The notes below the pieces were generated by a model, which was not told the DNA's origin, did not search any database, and was given only the letters and a program-made list of their open reading frames with translations. Of a DNA stretch of 64,000 bases, positions 3,524 through 55,536 are shown in pieces. The translations under genes were made by a program, and so were the position numbers. The first letter of the stretch is position 1. Each line of letters opens with the position of its first letter. Source of the stretch: Escherichia phage JS10; the sequence record EU863409. The stretch is one strand, 5' to 3'.

Positions 3524-5101
3524 ATGGCAAACTTTAATACAATATTAAGTTTTCTTAAGCCATGGGCTAATGAAGACGAAAAAGAATATAAACAACAATT
3601 AAATAACAATTTAGAGTCTGTCACTGCACCTAAGCTTGATGATGGCGCTCGCGAAATTGAAACCCAAGAGCAAAATATTCCTTATAACGCTCTTATGCAA
3701 CAAATGTTTGGTAGTAATGAGCCTGAAGTTAAAAACACCAGGGAACTCATTGATACCTACCGTAATTTGATGAACAACTATGAAGTCGATAACGCAGTTC
3801 AAGAAATTGTGTCTGACGCTATTGTCTACGAGGATGATAAAGAAGTAGTTGCATTAAATTTAGACGGGACAGATTTCAGTCAATCAATTAAAGATAAAAT
3901 TTTGGCTGAATTTAGTGAAGTTTTGAATCTTTTAAATTTCCAACGTAAAGGCACCGACCATTTCCAACGTTGGTATGTAGACTCGAGAATATTCTTTCAT
4001 AAAATTATAAACCCTAAAAAAATGAAAGATGGCGTACAAGAGCTTCGACGCTTAGACCCGCGCCAAGTCCAATATATTCGTGAAATTGTTACACGTATGG
4101 AAGATGGTGTTAAAATTGTAGATGGGTACCGCGAGTTTTTCGTTTACGATACTGGTCATGAAAGTTATTGTGCTGATGGACGCATTTATTCAGCTGGGAC
4201 TAAAGTTAAAATTCCTCGTGCTGCTGTAGTTTATGCACATTCTGGGTTATTGGATTGTTGTGGTAAAAACATCATTGGCTATTTGCAACGTGCTATTAAG
4301 CCTGCAAACCAGCTTAAATTGATGGAAGATGCAATGGTCATCTATCGTATTACCCGTGCTCCTGACCGTCGTGTATTTTATATCGATACAGGAAATATGC
4401 CTTCTCGTAAGGCTGCAGCACAAATGCAACATATCATGAACACGATGAAAAACCGTGTGGTATATGATGCTTCGACCGGTAAAATTAAAAACCAGCAACA
4501 TAATATGTCAATGACCGAAGACTATTGGTTGCAACGTCGAGACGGTAAAGCGGTAACAGAAGTTGATACCATGCCTGGTGCCACAGGTATGAGTGATATG
4601 GATGACGTTCTTTATTTCCGCACAGCACTTTATCGTGCGCTGCGTATCCCAGAGTCACGTATCCCTAGTGAATCCAATTCCGGTGTTATGTTTGATGCTG
4701 GTACGGCTATAACTCGTGATGAGTTGAAATTTGCTAAATGGATTCGACAGCTCCAAAATAAATTTGAAGAAATTTTCTTAGACCCATTAAAAACAAACCT
4801 CATTCTTAAAAAGATTATTACAGAAGATGAGTGGGAAAGAGAAATAAATAATATTAAAGTTACGTTCAACCGTGATAGCTATTTCAGTGAAATGAAAGAT
4901 GCGGAAATCATGGAACGCAGAATCAATATGCTAACGATGGCTGAACCATTTATTGGTAAGTATATTTCACATCAAACGGCTATGAAAGATTTCCTTCAGA
5001 TGACTGACGAAGAAATTAATCAAGAAGCTAAGCAAATTGAAGAAGAGTCTAAAGAGGCTCGTTTCCAAAACCCAGATGAAGAAGAAGAAGAGGATTTCTA
5101 A
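3524..5101 (+). CDS. 20: portal vertex protein gp20
   Basis: 525 aa, position between 19 and 67; acidic C-terminus ending EEEEEDF. Confidence 0.9.
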
Positions 5102-5376
5102 TGGAAGATTTAATCGAAGCTATTAAATCAAACGACCTCGTAGCAGTTCGTAAAGCAGCAGGCCCGCTTATCGAATCTCGAGTAGCCGCTTTGATTGAAG
5201 CCCGTAAAGCAGAAATTGCTCGCTCCGTTATGATTGAAGGCGAAGAAGCCGATAAAGATGACGAAGACGAAGATAAAGACGAAAAATCCGATAAAGCAGA
5301 TAAGAAAGACAAAAAAGAATCTGACGATGCGGATGAAGGTGATGACGACGATGATGACGACGAGGACGACGAATAA
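5101..5376 (+). CDS. 67: prohead core protein gp67 (polyacidic C-terminus)
   Basis: 91 aa, start overlaps gene 20 stop (TAATG); D/E-rich tail; position as in T4. Confidence 0.6.
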
Positions 5377-9283: not shown

Positions 9284-10567
9284 ATGGCAAAGATTAACGA
9301 ATTACTGCGCGAGTCAACAACTACTACCAGCAACTCATTGGGTCGCCCTAATCTTGTTGCTTTGACCCGTGCTACCACTAAACTAATTTATCGCGATATC
9401 ATCGCTGAACAACGTACTAGTCAGCCTATTGCTGCATTGTATGGTGTCAAATATCTTACCCCTGATAATGAATTCAGTTTCCAAACTGGTGCTGTTTATG
9501 GTGGTGAAGTTGGTTCTAAAGACCGTGAAACTATCCCGGAACTCACAGATAAAGCCCAGGCGATTGCCAAGGGTGACTACTTTAAGTATCAGAATGTGGT
9601 TTATAAGGCTCTTCAAGCAAGCCCACTCGCATCCACTAGCGCTACAGGATTGGCCGATGCTCTTCAAGAAGGTTTGGTGTCATTAACATGTCGTCTGGTT
9701 CCTGATGCAGCCCATACCACTAAATTCGAAGCGAGTAATGTAGAAATCTCTGATGCTGTATTCCAGGTTAATAAATGGAATGCTCCTGTTAAGACCCGTA
9801 AATTGAAGACTGCTTTGACTGTAGAATTGGCACAGGATATGGAATCAAATGGCTTCGACGCCCCTGCATTCTTAGAAGACCTCCTGGCTACAGTAATGGC
9901 AGATGAAATTAATAAAGACGTTCTGCAATCTCTGATAACCGTATCTAAACGCTATAAAGTTACCGGTGTATCTGATAATGGCATCATCGATTTGACTTAT
10001 GATAGTGCTCCGGAATCTGCCCGTAAACTTTATGAAATTGTCTGTGAGATGAATTCTGAAATCCAGAAAACTACTTCTTATTCTGGTACGTTTGTTGTGG
10101 CTTCAAGTCGTGTGGCTGCAATGCTTGCAGGTTCTGGCTGGTTAAAACATAGACCTGAAGATAATAATTGGCTCCCGGAAACTGCCTATGGTTATTTGTT
10201 GAATGGATTACCACTGTTCTGTGACGTTAACAGCCCATTGGATTATGTTATCGTAGGTGTTAAAGAGAACTATGGTGGTAATGAAGTTGTCGGTTCTATT
10301 TTCTATGCCCCATATACAGAAGGCCTGGATTTAGACGACCCAGAACACGTTGGTGCTTATAAGGTTATTGTCGACCCGGATTCATTACAGCCTTCTATTT
10401 CTCTGATGGTTCGTTATGCACTTTCGGCTAACCCATACACCGTAGCTAAAGACGACAAAGAAGCTCGTATTATCGACGCAACCAATATGGATTTAATGGC
10501 GGGCCAGAGTAATATGTCTTATCTGCTTGGTGTTAAACTTCCAGCAATTATTTACGAGGCTGATTAA
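9284..10567 (+). CDS. 24: capsid vertex protein gp24 (copy 1)
   Basis: 427 aa (same length as T4 gp24); gp23-like fold signatures (ELAQD, YYAPY); position after 23. Confidence 0.9.
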   Translation: MAKINELLRESTTTTSNSLGRPNLVALTRATTKLIYRDIIAEQRTSQPIAALYGVKYLTPDNEFSFQTGAVYGGEVGSKDRETIPELTDKAQAIAKGDYFKYQNVVYKALQASPLASTSATGLADALQEGLVSLTCRLVPDAAHTTKFEASNVEISDAVFQVNKWNAPVKTRKLKTALTVELAQDMESNGFDAPAFLEDLLATVMADEINKDVLQSLITVSKRYKVTGVSDNGIIDLTYDSAPESARKLYEIVCEMNSEIQKTTSYSGTFVVASSRVAAMLAGSGWLKHRPEDNNWLPETAYGYLLNGLPLFCDVNSPLDYVIVGVKENYGGNEVVGSIFYAPYTEGLDLDDPEHVGAYKVIVDPDSLQPSISLMVRYALSANPYTVAKDDKEARIIDATNMDLMAGQSNMSYLLGVKLPAIIYEAD

Positions 10568-11850
10568 TGTCTAAGATTATAGACCTAATTAAAGAATCCA
10601 CATTGACGGCTGCCAACTCGGTTGGCCGTCCTGCTCTTCTTTCATACACCCAAGCAACTAATAAACGAATCTTTAAAGCCCTAGTTGCTGAACAAAAAAC
10701 AAGCCAACCTGTTGCCGCTCTGTACGGGGTTCGTGTACTTAATCCTGACGACAAAATGACTTATCTTGGTGGCGCTACATTTGCAGGCCAGATTGGTATG
10801 TCGGAACGTGAAAATATTCCTGAATTTACCGATTCGTCTACAGCTTATGCAGCCGGCGATATGTTCCAGTTTGAAAGTGTAGTGTTTAAAGTTCTAGAAG
10901 CATCTCCTTTCGCCGGAACCACAGAAACCGACCTCGGTGAAGTTATTTCTGAAGCAGTGGCCGCTGGGCATATTCGTATGGTATCAGATGCTGCTATTAC
11001 TTCTAAATTTGAACAAGGCCACCCTGAAATTGCTGAAGCAGGCTTCCGTATTGACAAATGGCAATCTGAAGTTAAATCACGTAAACTGAAAACTTCATTG
11101 ACAGTCGAATTGGCCCAAGACCTAGAATCAAACGGGTTTAATGCTCCTAATTTCGTTGAAAATCTGCTAGGCATTCAAATGGCAGAAGAAATTAATAAGG
11201 ACGTATTACAGTCATTAATTACGGTGAGTTCTCGTTTTAAAGTCCAAGGTGTTTCTGAAAAGGGCGTATTAGACCTTACCAACCCACGTTACGATAATGC
11301 CCAGGACCGTGCTCGTACATTATATTATTACATGTGTGAGATGAACTCTGCCGTCCAACGTCAAACTTCTTTCGCCGGGACTTATGCAGTAGCTAGTTCT
11401 CGTTGTGCTGCTATTCTCGCCGCTTCCGGTTGGGTTGAGAAAAAGGAAGACCAAGACGAATTGGCTTATGGTGTATTAAAGAATGGTCTGCCTCTTTATG
11501 CCGATATGAATAGTCCATGTGATTATGTTATTGTTGGTGTAAATGCTCAGATGGGTGAAGGACAGACGGTCGCATCTTTATATTATGCGCCTTATACGGA
11601 AGGTTTGGATGTGGTTGATGAAGAAGGTGATACTTCAGTAGGTGAATTTAAGGTTATTGTTGACCCAGAAAGCTTACAACCTACAGTAGCATTGCTTGCT
11701 CGTTATGCATTGACTGCAAACCCTTATACCGTCGCTAAGGACGATAAAGAAGCCCGCATTATTGATGGCTCTGATATGGACAAAATGGCTAACCAAAGCC
11801 AGTTGAGTTCTTATCTTGGTGTAAAACTTCCTCCATTGGATAAAAACTAA
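10567..11850 (+). CDS. 24: capsid vertex protein gp24 paralogue (copy 2)
   Basis: 427 aa, collinear with copy 1 (TVELAQDLESNGF, DVLQSLITVS, YTVAKDDKEARIID); start overlaps copy 1 stop (TAATG). Confidence 0.85.
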   Translation: MSKIIDLIKESTLTAANSVGRPALLSYTQATNKRIFKALVAEQKTSQPVAALYGVRVLNPDDKMTYLGGATFAGQIGMSERENIPEFTDSSTAYAAGDMFQFESVVFKVLEASPFAGTTETDLGEVISEAVAAGHIRMVSDAAITSKFEQGHPEIAEAGFRIDKWQSEVKSRKLKTSLTVELAQDLESNGFNAPNFVENLLGIQMAEEINKDVLQSLITVSSRFKVQGVSEKGVLDLTNPRYDNAQDRARTLYYYMCEMNSAVQRQTSFAGTYAVASSRCAAILAASGWVEKKEDQDELAYGVLKNGLPLYADMNSPCDYVIVGVNAQMGEGQTVASLYYAPYTEGLDVVDEEGDTSVGEFKVIVDPESLQPTVALLARYALTANPYTVAKDDKEARIIDGSDMDKMANQSQLSSYLGVKLPPLDKN

Positions 11851-11872
11851 AAAGGGACCTCACGGTCCCTTT
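11851..11872. terminator. bidirectional hairpin AAAGGGACC-TCAC-GGTCCCTTT between convergent gene 24 copy 2 and rnlB
   Basis: perfect 9-bp stem, flanked by A/T runs on both strands. Confidence 0.6.
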
Positions 11873-11877
11873 ACTGT

Positions 11878-12906
11878 TTATTTGGATACTAGTTCAATCC
11901 ATACAGCTCGTAGCGTATCTTTAACGCACTCAACGAGCTGCTTTTTAACTTCAACAGGGTTTTCTGCATCGGTTAATTCTAATTCTTCACGGGCTGCCTC
12001 TTCCAAAATATCTTGGACCGTCAAGCCCATTACCTTTCCAAAATCTTTAGGTGTTACTTCACCAATCTTACTGATAACGTTATTGATACGGTTAACTGTC
12101 ACATAATCTGTGAATTGCCACATCAAGTCCATATCGTCTTGGGACAATACTACTGCAGCCTTAATAGGCTTATCAGATTTTTTCTTCTCGCTGAATTTAG
12201 AGTTCTTACATTTAATCGCTACACGATTTCCATTAGGAAGCCAGATTGGAACATCAGGTTTCAGTACAAAGCCTTCAGCCGTAAATACTTTACCTTCGAC
12301 CTTAGGAATAAAATCGGTTGAGTTAGCAATGGTTAAACCTGCATTATCCACTGCAAAATTGTAATCTGGGATAACAGAATCAAAATCATTCGGCAGTTTA
12401 ATAAGGTCTTCAAAGCTACCTGTGGCTAAGCACGGAGCAACCTTAAACTTATGGATAATACAGAAAGCTTCCATAAGGGTATCAGTTAAAACGGATTCGG
12501 TGCCATCTTCTTTAGTAACACGGATATCAAATACATAAAAGTCTTTATCGCCGTAATCCACATTCTTCTGGATACCCGTACCAGCGAACTCGCCATAAAT
12601 TTGGTACGACTGATAATTAATAGATTCGATTAGATGTTGAACAGATTTAATAGAATCAGCATAGTTCTTAAGTACAATTTCATAGCCATAGAAATCTTCG
12701 GCCGGGAGAATTGGGCCAGTGCGCTTGGCGCACGTGACTGCGTCACGTTCTATGATTAAACTAAAGTTGGTTCCATGAATCTTCTCACGTGCTACCCATT
12801 CACCACCAGTCAAACCATGGGTACGGAGTTTTTCGATAAACTTACTGTTGTAATGGTTTTCCAGACTGCTATATTTCTTGAACATATTATTTGCTTCCAT
12901 AATCAA
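11878..12906 (-). CDS. rnlB: RNA ligase 2 (RnlB)
   Basis: 342 aa; nucleotidyltransferase motif I EKIHGTN; position between 24 and hoc as in T4. Confidence 0.85.
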
Positions 12907-13255
12907 TTTTAACTAATTTACCTTTAAGGTAACCATAATTTGAAGGTTTACAATCAGACATATACATGCTTTCTACCAGAGTGTGGTGCCTAGCATGGTG
13001 TATTTCTGTTTTCCACAACCCTATATTAGTAACTTCTTTGGCCCTTGGCATAACTATAACAAGTCCTAACCAAGATTTCCATATAACAGGACACAAATAC
13101 GGGTCCTTCAATGATGAGAATTCATGTTCTGTTATATTGCAATAGAGTCCAGTTAAAAACAGTTTCCAACTATAGAAGCTTGGTATCTTAATGGCGTATC
13201 GTTTCGTCAGGAAGACCTGCCGGGTTGCACCATTTCTTTTTCTGATAAATGGCAT
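12887..13255 (-). CDS. hypothetical protein with protein-kinase-like motif spacing
   Basis: 122 aa; AIK ... HH ... DCKPSNYG ... KIDYG resemble kinase VAIK / catalytic-loop / DFG motifs; overlaps rnlB start by 20 bp. Confidence 0.4.
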
Positions 13256-13370
13256 AAAACCACCATAATAAATATAATTAAATAGAAGAGCTAGTAATCT
13301 TCTGTCACCAAGCCAAATGGTTTAACGGAAGGACCTAGACCCATTATAACACACCTAAATTTAAAGCATA

Positions 13371-13580
13371 TTACTTTGAACTAGAACGCGCTTTGCGCCG
13401 AACCTTGTTGTTCAATCTTTTACGATAAACAACCTTTTCTTTTGATTTAAATTTCTCTTTGGCTTGTTCTACATCGACCCAAGCTTTAGCCATGTCCTTA
13501 GCAGTACCACCTAATTTTTTAGCAATTTCTATAAAATTTAGTCCAGATTCGTGTAAAAAATGTACTTTAACCTTATCCAT
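13371..13580 (-). CDS. hypothetical small basic protein, possible helix-turn-helix
   Basis: ORF 13371..13619, probable start at MDKVKV (13580); GLNFIEIAKKLGGTAKDMAKAW segment; basic C-terminus. Confidence 0.4.
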   Translation of the reverse strand: MDKVKVHFLHESGLNFIEIAKKLGGTAKDMAKAWVDVEQAKEKFKSKEKVVYRKRLNNKVRRKARSSSK

Positions 13581-13609
13581 AACAATTCTCTTGTTGAGTT
13601 GGTAAAGCC

Positions 13610-13639
13610 ATCTTAACATAGGATTTTTAACTTGTAAAC
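13610..13639 (-). promoter_or_regulatory. candidate sigma70-type early promoter (GTTTACA-N17-TAAGAT) for the small HTH-like ORF
   Basis: -35 GTTTACA and a weak -10 read on the minus strand. Confidence 0.3.
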
Positions 13640-13650
13640 AGGAGTATTAA

Positions 13651-14658
13651 ATGGCAGATTCTATTTTTGGTCATGACGGTCGAGGGACCTTTTCCGGTAT
13701 TGCTTTAAAGGAATCGGATACTGTTATCCCTTTTGAAAAAATTCTTACTAAAGAAAGTCTTATAAACCCGGCAAGATTGGTAGGGAGTAATTCGTATGGC
13801 TTAGGCTTGGTTAGTAAATCCGGAAGAGCTGAAGTTCTGGCCCATTTGGGGATAACCGAAGAAATGTTATCCCCTGGTATCCCTGGCCCTAAAGGTGAAA
13901 GCATTGTAGGACCGAGAGGCCCGGCTGGTCCTGTAGGCCCTGTGGGTCTAAATTGGAAAGGAACATGGAGTGCTGCAACAGCCTATGTTAAGGATGATGC
14001 AGTAGGGTACAATGGGGCTTCTTATTTTTGCGTTCAGGATTCTACCGGTAATAATCCTGCTGAAGAAAACAGCCTTTACTGGGCCTTATTGGCTTCTCAG
14101 GGTGCACAAGGCGAACAGGGTATCCCGGGTAAAGATGGTGAGCAGGGTCCGCAAGGTGTTCAAGGTCCTCCTGGGGTGGATGGGATTGATGGACTTGACG
14201 GAGCTACTGGCCCTCTAGGTCCTCAGGGTCCTCAAGGCGAACCTGGTAAAGATGGCACAGATTTGTTTTCATTCCATAAGTATACCAACGTTGCTGCTGG
14301 GTACGGTGAAATAAAAATACCTGGGGTCGCCAATACGGTTCTTAGAGTTAGATTGGTTAACAACCAAATAGAATACAGCATTTTAAGTAAAGGTGGGACT
14401 ACCCGATATTGTGATTATCACTTTGTTGCTCCTAGTGTTTCGGGTGGAACGGTTACTACCGGTGGCGGAACTAAGACTTTGTCTCCTACAGGCTCATTTG
14501 TTATAGTAAGTGCGGCATATAACGGGCTACGTCCTATTAATATAACCTTAAAGGAATGGGGTTCTAAAACAATTTCAGAAATAACAGTATTTCAACACGG
14601 GCGCAGTGTAGATTCTAATAAACCTATATTGGTTAAAATGGTTAGTTTCCCTTATTAA
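13651..14658 (+). CDS. collagen-like (Gly-X-Y repeat) protein with non-collagen N- and C-terminal domains
   Basis: 335 aa; GIPGPKGESIVGPRGPAGPVGPVG and an uninterrupted run of about 18 G-X-Y triplets (GAQGEQGIPGKDGEQGPQGVQGPPGVDGIDGLDGATGPLGPQGPQGEPGKDG); AGGAG RBS. Confidence 0.8.
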   Translation: MADSIFGHDGRGTFSGIALKESDTVIPFEKILTKESLINPARLVGSNSYGLGLVSKSGRAEVLAHLGITEEMLSPGIPGPKGESIVGPRGPAGPVGPVGLNWKGTWSAATAYVKDDAVGYNGASYFCVQDSTGNNPAEENSLYWALLASQGAQGEQGIPGKDGEQGPQGVQGPPGVDGIDGLDGATGPLGPQGPQGEPGKDGTDLFSFHKYTNVAAGYGEIKIPGVANTVLRVRLVNNQIEYSILSKGGTTRYCDYHFVAPSVSGGTVTTGGGTKTLSPTGSFVIVSAAYNGLRPINITLKEWGSKTISEITVFQHGRSVDSNKPILVKMVSFPY

Positions 14659-14669
14659 TTGGAGGTAGC

Positions 14670-15530
14670 ATGTCTATACAAGTAAATGGACCTCATTATG
14701 AATTGGTTGGGAGAACGGTAACTCTTAGGGCTGTTTTATCTGAATCTTTAACTGACGCTGATATAAAATGGTACAAAAACGGTGTAAACGTTCCATTATT
14801 AGATAAAGAAGACCCGATGTATCTAAATCTTTGGGATGTAGGGTTTCCGGCTTCTGGGACCTATTATGCAATAGCAACCGATAAACTTACACAAGAGGTT
14901 TTTCAAAGCGACGATTTTGTTTTAGAAATAGGAATGGAGCCTAGAGATATAGTTATTTCCGTAGAAAATTTAGATGCTATCGTAAAGGCGGCCATAGGTC
15001 AAAAAGTTTCTTTACAACCTTTAATTTCTATGGGTGCCACGCCCTGGGCTGAAGTCGAGTGTGAATGGTGGAAATACGATAAAATGGTTTCAAATGTAAA
15101 GGATTTGGACGTTGATATAAATCCTTCTATGTACGGGACATATTCACTTAATGTTTCTGCTACCGCTGAAGGAGCCTATAATCCGTATCATGATATAGTT
15201 ACGGTAGATATCATGCCTTTAGATGGTATTTTACCAGAACCTGAAGTGTGTCCTTTTATATACTCGAATGATTTAAATCAATATTTGTCTTATCCTGGTG
15301 GAAGAAATAGGGCTCATATGTGGATAGGTTGGTGGGTATTGGATGAGATAAAAGGAGCCCTTGCTAAAGACCAGGATTGGGCTATCAATATAGAAGATAG
15401 CAATTTTAGGTATAAGTGTGAGCTCATGAAAGTGGCAGAACTTTTGTCACGATATCCTGATGTAGAAATACAGGAATCAAGAAATGGATACATTTTGAAT
15501 AGGAAGCACCTGACATTAAATGTCATATAA
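14670..15530 (+). CDS. Hoc-like paralogue: two Ig-like domains plus Hoc-type C-terminal capsid-binding domain
   Basis: 286 aa; GGAGG RBS 12 bp after the collagen-like gene; C-terminus (WIGWWVLDEI...YPDVEIQESRNGYIL) parallels the C-terminus of the 469-aa Hoc. Confidence 0.7.
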   Translation: MSIQVNGPHYELVGRTVTLRAVLSESLTDADIKWYKNGVNVPLLDKEDPMYLNLWDVGFPASGTYYAIATDKLTQEVFQSDDFVLEIGMEPRDIVISVENLDAIVKAAIGQKVSLQPLISMGATPWAEVECEWWKYDKMVSNVKDLDVDINPSMYGTYSLNVSATAEGAYNPYHDIVTVDIMPLDGILPEPEVCPFIYSNDLNQYLSYPGGRNRAHMWIGWWVLDEIKGALAKDQDWAINIEDSNFRYKCELMKVAELLSRYPDVEIQESRNGYILNRKHLTLNVI

Positions 15531-15574: not shown

Positions 15575-16984
15575 TTAGTAAAAATAAATTATACCTGTGT
15601 CAAGAGCCGAACGATGGATAATTCTTCCATTTCGTGATTCTTGTACATCAACCTCTGGATAATCCGCAACCATTTTTTGAAGAGTGTAGCGATGGAGATA
15701 ATAATTGCTATCTGGGTCATCAGTTTTCCAATCTTTACCTTCAAGTGTCATTTTCTGGATTTCATCCATAACCCACCAACCGGCCCAAATATACGCTGAA
15801 TTACGAACCGGCAGCGGATGGACGTAAGGTAGTTCGCCTTCCGGTTCAGGAGCAACTTTAGGCGTAATTGTTACATTACCAGATTTTTTGACAGTCACAG
15901 GATTATAGTCGGTAGCCGAAACCACAACAGAAACTTCAATAACCTGTGAACCTTCAGCACTTGTATCGACTACTAAAGTATCTGTGGTGCCGGCAACAGG
16001 TGAACCATCTTTCTTCCAAGAATATGCAAAAGTAGCACCAGCAGGCGCACCTGCTACGGTAGCTTTAAAAGAAGCTGGAGTTCCTTCCGGAGTATTAATA
16101 GAGGCCGGCGCTAAAGTAACAGAAACACCTGTCATGGTCTTTTTAGTAATTGTTACACTTCCGGTTTTGGTAACGGTTAAATCGTTATAATCCGTACCTT
16201 TTAGGACTACCGAAACTTCAATAGTGTAAGAACCTACTGTAGATGTATCAACAGCAAGGGTATTACTGCTTTCGCCCGGAATAATAGAACCATTTTTCTT
16301 CCAAGAATAAGTTGCATTTACGCCGGAAGGAGCGCCAACTACATCCGCTTTAAACTGTGCAGATGAGCCTTTCTCTGTACTAATTGAGGCTGGTGTTAAA
16401 GTAACGGAAGCACCTGATATAGTTTTCTTAACAAAAGTTACCGCAATACCTTTAGTAGCTGTAGCCGGGTCATATTCAGGGGCGGTAACAGTAACTTCAC
16501 AGTTCAACGTGTAATTTGCTTCTGCTGCTTCAGTTACAGTAATAGTTTTACCAGTTTGACCTGAAATTACAGTTGTATTACGTTTCCAAACATAAGCCAT
16601 TGTAGCGCCAGCAGGGACACCCGATACGTTAGCAGTAACAACTTGGGATTGACCGATTTCTTTAGAAACGGAAGTAGGGTCTAAGGTCAAAGAAAGAGCC
16701 CCAATGGTCTTATTAGCTACAGTAACTTCAAAAGTTTTTTCAGCTACCTCAGGTTCGCCTTCGGTCGGAGTAGAAGTTGCTACTACTTTTAAAACTTTCT
16801 TACCAGCTGGAGCCGCACCGGTATATCTCAAAACATTGGTGGCCTCTGGATTAGAAGCACCGTCAATGGTCCATACATATGTAACGGTTCCTTCTACAGC
16901 TGCACCTGTTGCGGTAGCAGTGTAGTTGGCGCTTTCGCCTATTTTAATAGACGCAGCGCCGGCTATACTTACAGTAAAAGCCAT
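15575..16984 (-). CDS. hoc: Hoc outer capsid decoration protein, four tandem Ig-like domains plus C-terminal capsid-binding domain
   Basis: 469 aa; four repeats of roughly 90 aa with the pattern TYxWKKNG...Y; C-terminal WAGWWVMDEI...YPEVDVQESRNGRII. Confidence 0.85.
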   Translation of the reverse strand: MAFTVSIAGAASIKIGESANYTATATGAAVEGTVTYVWTIDGASNPEATNVLRYTGAAPAGKKVLKVVATSTPTEGEPEVAEKTFEVTVANKTIGALSLTLDPTSVSKEIGQSQVVTANVSGVPAGATMAYVWKRNTTVISGQTGKTITVTEAAEANYTLNCEVTVTAPEYDPATATKGIAVTFVKKTISGASVTLTPASISTEKGSSAQFKADVVGAPSGVNATYSWKKNGSIIPGESSNTLAVDTSTVGSYTIEVSVVLKGTDYNDLTVTKTGSVTITKKTMTGVSVTLAPASINTPEGTPASFKATVAGAPAGATFAYSWKKDGSPVAGTTDTLVVDTSAEGSQVIEVSVVVSATDYNPVTVKKSGNVTITPKVAPEPEGELPYVHPLPVRNSAYIWAGWWVMDEIQKMTLEGKDWKTDDPDSNYYLHRYTLQKMVADYPEVDVQESRNGRIIHRSALDTGIIYFY

Positions 16985-54588: not shown

Positions 54589-55536
54589 TTAATAAAAATC
54601 AGCTACTGTAGCAGTTAGTTTAGACAAACCTGATTTAACGAAATAAGGATAAACTTTAGATTTCGAAGGTTTGTCATACGTATTATATCTTTCAGTAATT
54701 AAAGCAACAATATCATCTGGGATAAAGTCCATATCAATTAAGATTTGGTTTTCACAGAAACGTTCATATTGTTCCTCAGTAAGAAGTGTTTTAATTATAT
54801 CATGGTCATAATAATTCAGAGCAATTGCTTCAAGTTCCTTGGCACGAGTGCTAGGAGTACGTTCGCCTTCAACCATTGTCAACCAATAATCACCACGAAC
54901 TTTAATACTTGCAACGTTGTCCTTGCGGTCACCTTTAATAACCTTAGTCACGCAATCAAGCAGAGCATCACCAGATTTTGTTTTGACGAATTTTTTCTGC
55001 ATTGGAGACCATTGTTTTACACCAGGGAATTTATGAAGTTGGGTAAAGTCACCATCAGAAGAGCCAATCATAACAGGATGGCCTAAAGCCGTAAGGATGC
55101 GAGTCAATACAGCAATATGGTCATCAGCCTCGATTGTATCGATATTCATAACAATATAAGGCATGTTTTGTTCAAGCTCATCCACAATAATATGCATTGC
55201 AGTGAATAAGCCTTCCCAATCAAATGGTGATTCGTCACGTGCCTTGGCACGGTTTTTCTTATAATAAGAAGAATATCGACGACGCCAATAACCTGATTTA
55301 GAGTTATCAACACAAATGATTAATTGGTTGTAACCTTGTTTTTTAAAGTCTTTAATGTTTTTCTTAATTGAATTCAACACGAGGTGTCGAAGCATTGCTG
55401 TGGTTACTTTAGGAAATCCAGCGTTTTCACCAAATTCTTGGAAGGCTGCCGCCATAATGATTTGGCTGAAATCCAGGAGTAAAAATCCGTCTTTTTGTTG
55501 GTCTTCTTCAGGAAGTAAAAAATCTAAATCGTTCAT
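54589..55536 (-). CDS. rnh: RNase H (5'-3' flap exonuclease)
   Basis: 315 aa (T4 RNase H about 305 aa); acidic FEN-family clusters; position upstream of gene 34. Confidence 0.85.
   Translation of the reverse strand: MNDLDFLLPEEDQQKDGFLLLDFSQIIMAAAFQEFGENAGFPKVTTAMLRHLVLNSIKKNIKDFKKQGYNQLIICVDNSKSGYWRRRYSSYYKKNRAKARDESPFDWEGLFTAMHIIVDELEQNMPYIVMNIDTIEADDHIAVLTRILTALGHPVMIGSSDGDFTQLHKFPGVKQWSPMQKKFVKTKSGDALLDCVTKVIKGDRKDNVASIKVRGDYWLTMVEGERTPSTRAKELEAIALNYYDHDIIKTLLTEEQYERFCENQILIDMDFIPDDIVALITERYNTYDKPSKSKVYPYFVKSGLSKLTATVADFY

Follow-up and report, generated by a model that had tools for sequence, protein, structure and literature searches.

To our knowledge, the alpha-F helix anchors the hydrophobic spines in all characterized protein kinases. 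The atypical RIO, Bud32 and archaeal Ark1 kinases, which have chains of 173-270 residues, retain a helical C-lobe core, and OspG keeps helices after its DFG motif. OspG and NleH are active kinases without subdomains VIII-XI (PMC12756638). Among phages, the T7 gp0.7 kinase (T7K) and JSS1_004 are made before late gene expression. T7K has a DPV motif and a C-terminal DNA-binding domain and broadly disarms host defences by phosphorylation, and phage kinases have been described as acting broadly against defence (PMC13645617). The kinases that a 2026 survey reported from the BASEL coliphages were limited to T7K homologues and P1 Doc (PMC13645617).

The locus described here lies in a 64,000-nucleotide stretch of Escherichia phage JS10 (sequence record EU863409), which we refer to as the window. 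It encodes a small protein, called the mini-kinase below, that is predicted to be a minimal protein-kinase-like domain (Table 1). The OspG/NleH effector group is the nearest precedent, since both lack subdomains VIII-XI. Unlike OspG, however, the phage protein stops two to four residues past the DFG-type Gly, has 122 residues compared with 169 in the solved OspG chain, and has a bacterial rather than a eukaryotic host; it has no detectable sequence relationship to OspG or NleH. It also has no significant sequence similarity to RIO, Bud32 or Ark1, which, unlike the phage protein, are cellular housekeeping proteins. Compared with the eukaryotic-type Ser/Thr kinases (TTK/Mps1, PKA, KIN28 and PknB being the best matches), it is less than half as long, its similarity is below significance, and it has no HRD His/Arg, a glycine-rich loop with a single Gly, no APE motif and no helices alpha-F to alpha-I. 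T7K, which has a much larger kinase domain, offers by analogy a plausible biological role for the mini-kinase. Relationship to T7K was rejected after the family profile was compared with the T7K-like PBECO4 gp319 (hhalign probability 0.6%, 11 columns aligned). Note that Asteriusvirus jumbo phages carry a T7 gp0.7-like kinase gene and a mini-kinase gene ∼3.5 kb apart (462-1136 and 3983-4354 of the PBECO4 locus); the two, both of kinase type but unrelated, share a cluster of small genes.

Table 1. Features of the mini-kinase gene, its product and its surroundings, with positions in the window.
Feature	Position	Strand	Remark
ORF	12887..13255	-	122 aa, 14.3 kDa, pI 9.7; PHROG 4301 member; stand-alone minimal protein-kinase-like domain (predicted)
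ORF stop TAA	12887..12889	-	one base ahead of rnlB ATG (AGCAAATAATATGTTC)
G9-A-T11-R12	13220..13231	-	glycine-rich-loop position, between strands 1 and 2
A21-I22-K23	13187..13195	-	strand 3; VAIK-type ATP-phosphate-binding lysine (predicted); K23 invariant, followed by invariant P25
N40-I-T-E43	13127..13138	-	in long helix 30-47 (alpha-C equivalent); N40 and E43 invariant
D101-C-K103-P-S-N106	12938..12955	-	catalytic-loop equivalent (D-x-K-x-x-N), just ahead of strand 107-110
D118-Y-G120	12896..12904	-	DFG-equivalent metal-binding Asp (predicted; invariant), directly past strand 113-116
rnlB	11878..12885	-	RNA ligase 2, 335 aa; downstream gene, same predicted transcription unit as ORF
Shine-Dalgarno-like GGTGG	13260..13264	-	putative; 4 nt ahead of ATG at 13255
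T4-type middle promoter (predicted)	13343..13368	-	TGCTTTA (MotA-box consensus), 13 nt, TATAAT; upstream of ORF and rnlB
Terminator-like hairpin	11851..11872	-	9 bp stem, T run; 3' of rnlB, shared with convergent gp24 gene

A first-pass annotation of the window had described a 122-aa ORF adjoining rnlB and had offered a minimal or degenerate kinase-like fold, or else a chance resemblance, as the explanation of its kinase-like motifs. Translation of the minus strand reproduced the product quoted there, and the rnlB ATG was found at 12885, one base past the ORF stop. Alignment with phage JS98 identifies this ATG as the true rnlB start and rules out the TTG at 12906, an automatic call that would make rnlB overlap the mini-kinase ORF. 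The junction therefore reads TAA-T-ATG, and the two genes are predicted from this arrangement to be translationally coupled. The region from 11800 to 13700 is 87-93% identical to JS98-like T4-type coliphages of the genus Dhakavirus, of which three sequenced records carry the ORF and most, JS98 included, do not; in JS98 precisely this ORF is missing and the identical upstream sequence directly abuts the rnlB ATG. The ORF is intact in phages NC-G (97.5% identity) and IME341 (∼94%). Pairwise dN/dS among these three orthologues was 0.04-0.08, and the ORF is therefore taken as a protein-coding gene under strong purifying selection. The viral structure set (BFVD) lists the IME341 protein as an entry of only 54 aa (A0A2S1GRP3), whereas IME341 DNA encodes an intact 122-aa ORF (5001-5369 of the locus examined); the shorter length is probably an annotation artefact in that record.

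The protein matched the PHROG 4301 profile with E=2.7e-40 (139 bits; residues 3-121 on profile positions 39-168). This family carries no functional annotation. Profile searches yielded 781 relatives in a set of 5.8 billion proteins and at least 1,405 representatives at 50% identity, 868 of them with E-values below 1e-10. The 263 family proteins that were retrieved have a median length of 125 aa; a DYG motif was recognizable in 241, and in 88% of these 241 no more than 5 residues follow the DFG-type Asp, 3 being the most frequent number. Short length is thus the native state of the family, not the result of truncation. Values for pI range from 5.5 to 9.8. Carriers include T4-like phages (Dhakavirus and some Tequatrovirus), Asteriusvirus and other jumbo phages of Escherichia, Erwinia, Aeromonas, Ralstonia, Pseudomonas, Klebsiella and Shewanella, one N4-like phage, one FelixO1-like phage and other uncultured tailed-phage contigs; a member is also encoded by BASEL phage Bas45 (PaulHMueller). 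Species genomes of bacteria and archaea (185,579) were scanned twice with patterns; these scans, which required exact patterns and so were not exhaustive, gave 0 and 3 loci, all three on short MAG contigs, and the family looks essentially phage-borne. One viral contig has two tandem, overlapping mini-kinase paralogues (L017: 4640-5002 and 4992-5378), and tblastn matched at two sites in Aeromonas phage PS1 and at two in Shewanella phage SXP01.

An AlphaFold2 model computed from a 121-sequence alignment had a pLDDT of 91.9 and a pTM of 0.83. It contains strands at residues 5-8, 12-16, 20-25, 67-70, 107-110 and 113-116 and helices at 30-47, 78-89 and 95-98, and it shows the N-lobe expected of the PKL fold, a five-stranded antiparallel sheet with an alpha-C helix followed by a hinge. 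The C-lobe consists of one main helix (78-89), the short helix 95-98, the catalytic loop and a beta-hairpin. When the model was compared with the PDB using Foldseek, the best 50 matches were all to the TTK/Mps1 kinase domain (E ∼1e-4, probability 1.0), with query-normalized TM-scores of 0.54-0.61. Structural matches were almost exclusively protein-kinase-like, with tabulated values of 9.3 for JAK, 9.2 for APH(2''), 8.9 for BRAF and TTK, 8.5 for PknB, 8.3 for Rio2, 8.0 for Bud32, 7.9 for Rio1 and Ark1 and 7.3 for OspG. Among viral models, family members matched best, followed by annotated Ser/Thr kinases of giant viruses and herpesviruses; RP12 ORF186 was among these matches. The kinase-like fold suggested in the first-pass annotation is thereby supported: a high-confidence model gave a kinase-like fold, with Rio, Bud32 and APH among its matches, rather than an unrelated one, and profile searches did not place the protein in a non-enzymatic family. 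The predicted fold appears to be the ATP-binding and catalytic half of a protein kinase.

The motifs fall where a kinase would have them. In the model K23 is in strand 3, E43 in the long helix, D101-N106 in the loop before strand 107-110 and D118 right after strand 113-116. The Lys-to-Glu, Asp-to-Asn and Asn-to-DFG-Asp spacings are 20, 5 and 12, compared with 19, 5 and 13 in PKA. Residues K23, P25, F33, N40, P56, G108 and D118 are invariant in the 121 homologues, and G9, T11, R12, V14, W30, G36, E43, L54, C55, G64, M69, V115 and Y119 are conserved in at least 90%. Among 144 more divergent members, R12, K23, N40, E43 and D118 are still invariant and K103 is retained in at least 90%, with a mean column identity across the family of only 11%. 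The model and the alignment together make E43 a candidate salt-bridge partner of K23. Position 101 is always acidic (D in 106 of 121 homologues, E in 15), and position 106 is N in 106 of the 121 (88%) and S in the other 15. The loop at the glycine-rich position has G9 as its sole conserved Gly and reads G-x-T-R-x-V instead of GxGxxG, G9 and R12 being about invariant and T11 93% conserved in family alignments; G9 aligns with PKA G52 and V14 with V57. Some subgroups deviate at D-x-K-x-x-N, reading E-N-K-x-D-S in one case and C-E-Y-I/V-P-x-N in another, which means that not every member has the catalytic-loop Lys and Asn.

The AIK, DCKPSN and DYG motifs that the first-pass annotation had listed in this order were checked by translation, and they are conserved columns of the whole family, not features of one sequence. 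Its longer HH...DCKPSNYG segment held up in part. DCKPSN is the conserved catalytic-loop equivalent, but the histidines (H86, H87, H90 and H91) are unconserved and do not correspond to the HRD histidine, the residue preceding D101 being G, Y or S in the family; the HH part of the resemblance, judged from these alignments, is chance. We used the ordered pattern [AVI][IVLM]K..E..D.K..N..D[FYL]G to estimate how often such a series arises by chance. One match was obtained in 500,000 composition-matched shuffles (∼2e-6), and this ORF alone matched among the 278 six-frame segments of the window.

Sequence comparisons with known kinases were carried out at several levels. The ORF itself matched no family in Pfam, NCBIfam or PADLOC, the 121 members gave no kinase match in Pfam or NCBIfam, and searches of the PDB with phmmer and with the family profile gave no significant sequence match. 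No kinase model was matched significantly, the best kinase E-values being 0.03-0.2. When the family was aligned by hhalign with seven classical kinases, one collinear 110-column alignment was obtained (E=0.034 for this single comparison; the kinase sequences serve as an alignment aid only). It pairs G9, V14, K23 and E43 with PKA G52, V57, K72 and E91, and D101, K103, N106 and D118 with PKA D166, K168, N171 and D184. A profile of 144 diverse members gave 25 sub-threshold matches to PDB sequences, 23 of which were kinases, including TTK (E=0.16) and MAP3K8; D-a-K-p-d-N-f-G...V-a-i-D-Y-G aligned with HSDLKPAN...DFG of TTK. RP12 ORF186, a relative of 209 aa whose motif, TDLKPSN, is near-canonical, matched mostly kinases (KIN28 at 0.06, JNK2 and PKA at ∼0.4-0.5) and gave a Pfam ABC1 kinase-like match over the catalytic loop (E=0.025). 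Weak but consistent, these comparisons, none significant alone, fix the residue correspondences when taken together with the predicted fold. As a separate observation, weak Pfam matches to DUF3440, a domain of PAPS-reductase-like proteins, were found in 10 of the 121 members (best E=0.0012); in member P0016 the match covers residues 18-65, from the beta-3 Lys to the beta-4 region, on profile positions 57-104 of 182.

Hanks subdomains I-VII are present and none of VIII-XI. The protein ends two residues past G120, four past D118, and it lacks all that follows DFG in a complete kinase, namely an activation segment, an APE motif, a P+1 loop and helices alpha-F to alpha-I. Among the features of the PKL fold, we thus found the beta-3 Lys/alpha-C Glu pair, the acidic base and Asn of the catalytic loop and the DFG-type Asp, and we found neither a significant match to a curated kinase model nor an activation segment with a helical C-lobe core from alpha-F onward. 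Because alpha-F is absent, it cannot be taken for granted that the half-domain is stable and active in isolation. The gene is not one part of a split kinase, since the downstream gene is a complete RNA ligase 2. Longer relatives were considered as a source of the missing lobe and rejected; the tails of OBP_197 (273 aa), Kc263 gp027 (267 aa), RP12 ORF186 and others are unrelated, partly of low complexity and without a Pfam match. Domain fusion was likewise rejected, the N- and C-terminal extensions of longer members being unrelated, of low complexity or zinc-ribbon-like, with no kinase C-lobe.

The sequence at 13343-13368 has the MotA-box consensus known from T4 middle promoters, correctly spaced from a perfect -10 element. 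A strict MotA-box and TATAAT pattern gave two matches in the window (0.02 expected). One lies upstream of the mini-kinase gene, and the identical promoter sequence is found in JS98 directly upstream of rnlB; the other, at 54682-54706 (-), TGCTTTAATTACTGAAAGATATAAT, is probably another middle promoter. The arrangement of promoter, GGTGG and hairpin terminator suggests that the ORF and rnlB form a middle-mode operon read from a MotA-type promoter. Two more divergent orthologues (63-64% identical) lie 2-4 nt upstream of rnlB in other T4-like contigs with duplicated gp24, in one of which RnlB and gp24 are 76% and 91% identical to those of the window. Since these orthologues share the position, the rnlB linkage is old within this T4-like clade, and it is limited to it. 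What lies between rnlB and 24.3 varies: in T4 it is the unrelated 24.2 (Y10B; L036, 1151-1429), in JS98 there is nothing, in the window it is the mini-kinase, and in one metagenomic relative 24.2 and the mini-kinase lie side by side (L040, 1240-1491). Homology to T4 24.2 was rejected (hhalign probability 0.08%).

Elsewhere the contexts are different. One Tequatrovirus member lies in the hypervariable ipI-to-tRNA region, members in jumbo phages and in an N4-like phage lie within arrays of small unknown genes, another member is alone on the opposite strand beside an HNH endonuclease gene, and another is inside a structural module. All-against-all comparison of 570 neighboring ORFs from ∼19 non-redundant loci revealed no conserved partner gene, and the only recurrent neighbors were Tad2-like and glutaredoxin genes, at three loci each. 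The Tad2-like genes (Pfam PF11195, which we take to be the anti-Thoeris sponge family) are within 3 kb of the mini-kinase gene at L008/L009 4274-4546, L017 3559-3879 and L025 1098-1373; two of these three loci are from related jumbo phages. Overlapping small ORFs downstream in PaulHMueller, PBECO4 and phi G17 were considered as a partner gene and are not convincingly homologous. Because contexts vary and no partner is conserved, we regard the mini-kinase as a stand-alone accessory gene of variable regions.

Other features of the window near this locus were recorded. Tandem paralogues of gp24 (capsid vertex), 427 aa each, are encoded at 9284-10567 and 10567-11850 (+), as in JS98. Two plus-strand genes, at 13651-14658 (+) and 14670-15530 (+), lie between the 24.3-like gene and an Ig-domain Hoc-like gene (15575-16984 (-), 469 aa), and JS98 and NC-G lack both. 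In the 335-aa protein of this pair Pfam recognizes a collagen triple-helix repeat (E=1.2e-10), a CBM_5_12-like segment is also present, and the C-terminal region of the 286-aa protein (WIGWWVLDEI...ESRNGYILNRKHL) resembles the Hoc-like C-terminus. Both may be extra capsid-decoration proteins.

The reading that we favor, with a probability of about 0.6, is that the mini-kinase is an active minimal ATP-dependent phosphotransferase or ATPase, a free-standing protein-kinase-like domain that would serve as an accessory host-takeover factor. An enzyme is preferred to a pure binder because the residues for Mg-ATP binding and phosphoryl transfer are invariant in a family with so low a mean column identity. 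Mg-ATP would bind between the sheet and the remnant of the catalytic loop, where K23, held by E43, would bind the alpha and beta phosphates, N106 and D118 would bind Mg2+, and D101 would act on the acceptor. At the tip of the glycine loop, contact with the gamma phosphate is probably made by T11 and R12, two residues specific to the family. The reaction would yield either a phosphorylated molecule of the host or the phage or nothing more than hydrolyzed ATP. With the activation segment, the P+1 loop and the alpha-F to alpha-I platform absent, the acceptor site should be open, and the protein may accept many substrates, may phosphorylate a small molecule or nucleic acid, or may need a partner to make it active, as OspG does. 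Catalysis, substrate and biological role are what we infer for the mini-kinase; its scatter through the variable regions of unrelated phages suggests an accessory host-takeover or counter-defence gene.

The same fold could also belong to a pseudokinase or nucleotide-binding protein that acts by binding and not by phosphotransfer, and such a protein could sequester a nucleotide or a nucleotide-derived immune signal, or dock onto and block a host protein. Absence of the alpha-F structural core and replacement of the catalytic-loop Lys and Asn in subgroups speak for this explanation; many small phage anti-defence proteins are binders, and the Tad2-like sponge genes found within 3 kb at three loci hint at anti-defence neighborhoods. 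Pseudokinases, however, typically lose at least one position needed for Mg-ATP chemistry, and full retention is unusual, whereas the K23-E43 pair, the acid at position 101 and D118 vary little or not at all even though the family is very divergent; we consider binding alone plausible but less likely. The position beside rnlB raises another explanation, an RNA-directed kinase that would work with RNA ligase 2 in RNA repair or modification by supplying or marking phosphorylated ends or 2'-OH groups. An RnlB link of this kind, a special case of the main explanation, is possible but weakly supported. Being confined to one clade, the linkage could stem from one insertion in an ancestor, in every other context examined members had neither an RNA ligase gene nor an RNA-repair gene beside them, and the Tequatrovirus member occupies a different slot. 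The spread in family pI and the absence of Ark1 from the top structural matches also count against it, and we regard an RNA-directed role as improbable.

A more skeptical explanation would hold that the ORF is a remnant, either a truncated or a split fragment of a longer kinase gene, or that a non-kinase resembles a kinase by chance. The protein is far shorter than any characterized kinase and has no significant sequence match to kinase models, as a remnant or an accident might. Against this, length and C-terminal end are common to more than 1,400 clusters, dN/dS is 0.04-0.08, the downstream gene is a complete rnlB and not a C-lobe, OBP, Kc263 and RP12 owe their greater length to unrelated extensions of low complexity, the motif pattern would arise by chance with a probability of ∼2e-6, and structural matches are almost entirely kinases. 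We give this explanation very little credence. A gene fragment and the chance resemblance that the first-pass annotation had kept as its alternative are both effectively excluded by the cluster count, dN/dS, the common C-terminal end and the shuffles.

In the literature searched, no description of this family and no experimental data on it were found. A kinase name has been applied to a few jumbo-phage members by automated or depositor annotation, and for this reason the fold assignment is not wholly unprecedented: Kc263 gp027 is annotated as 'serine/threonine-protein kinase', AH04_186 as 'serine/threonine kinase' and pEa_SNUABM_5 gp070 as 'STE family protein kinase catalytic domain containing protein', and RP12 ORF186 is labeled 'Protein kinase domain-containing protein' in UniProt. 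What is new is one very large phage family, natively ending at DFG, in which the full catalytic residue set is conserved, and the kinase-like assignment is new information for PHROG 4301.

If the model is correct, no smaller kinase-type fold than that of this family may be known; the atypical kinases of small size that it matched (Ark1, OspG and Bud32) have chains of 169-216 residues. A bolder version of our reading holds that the 14-kDa subdomain I-VII polypeptide is a self-sufficient, active kinase and the smallest enzyme with the protein-kinase fold, with which thousands of phages phosphorylate host targets or immune signaling molecules, alone or completed by the host; we put this forward tentatively, at less than even odds. 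Should the protein be a self-sufficient kinase, the alpha-F-centered C-lobe, deemed the structural core of every kinase, would be dispensable. If active, the protein would lower the minimum size known for the protein-kinase fold to about 115-125 residues and would be a natural example of a bare ATP-binding and catalytic core; its small size could suit use as a protein-engineering scaffold. An active family would also be a second large phage kinase family besides T7K, and PHROG 4301, with at least 1,400 sequence clusters, gains a testable biochemical hypothesis.
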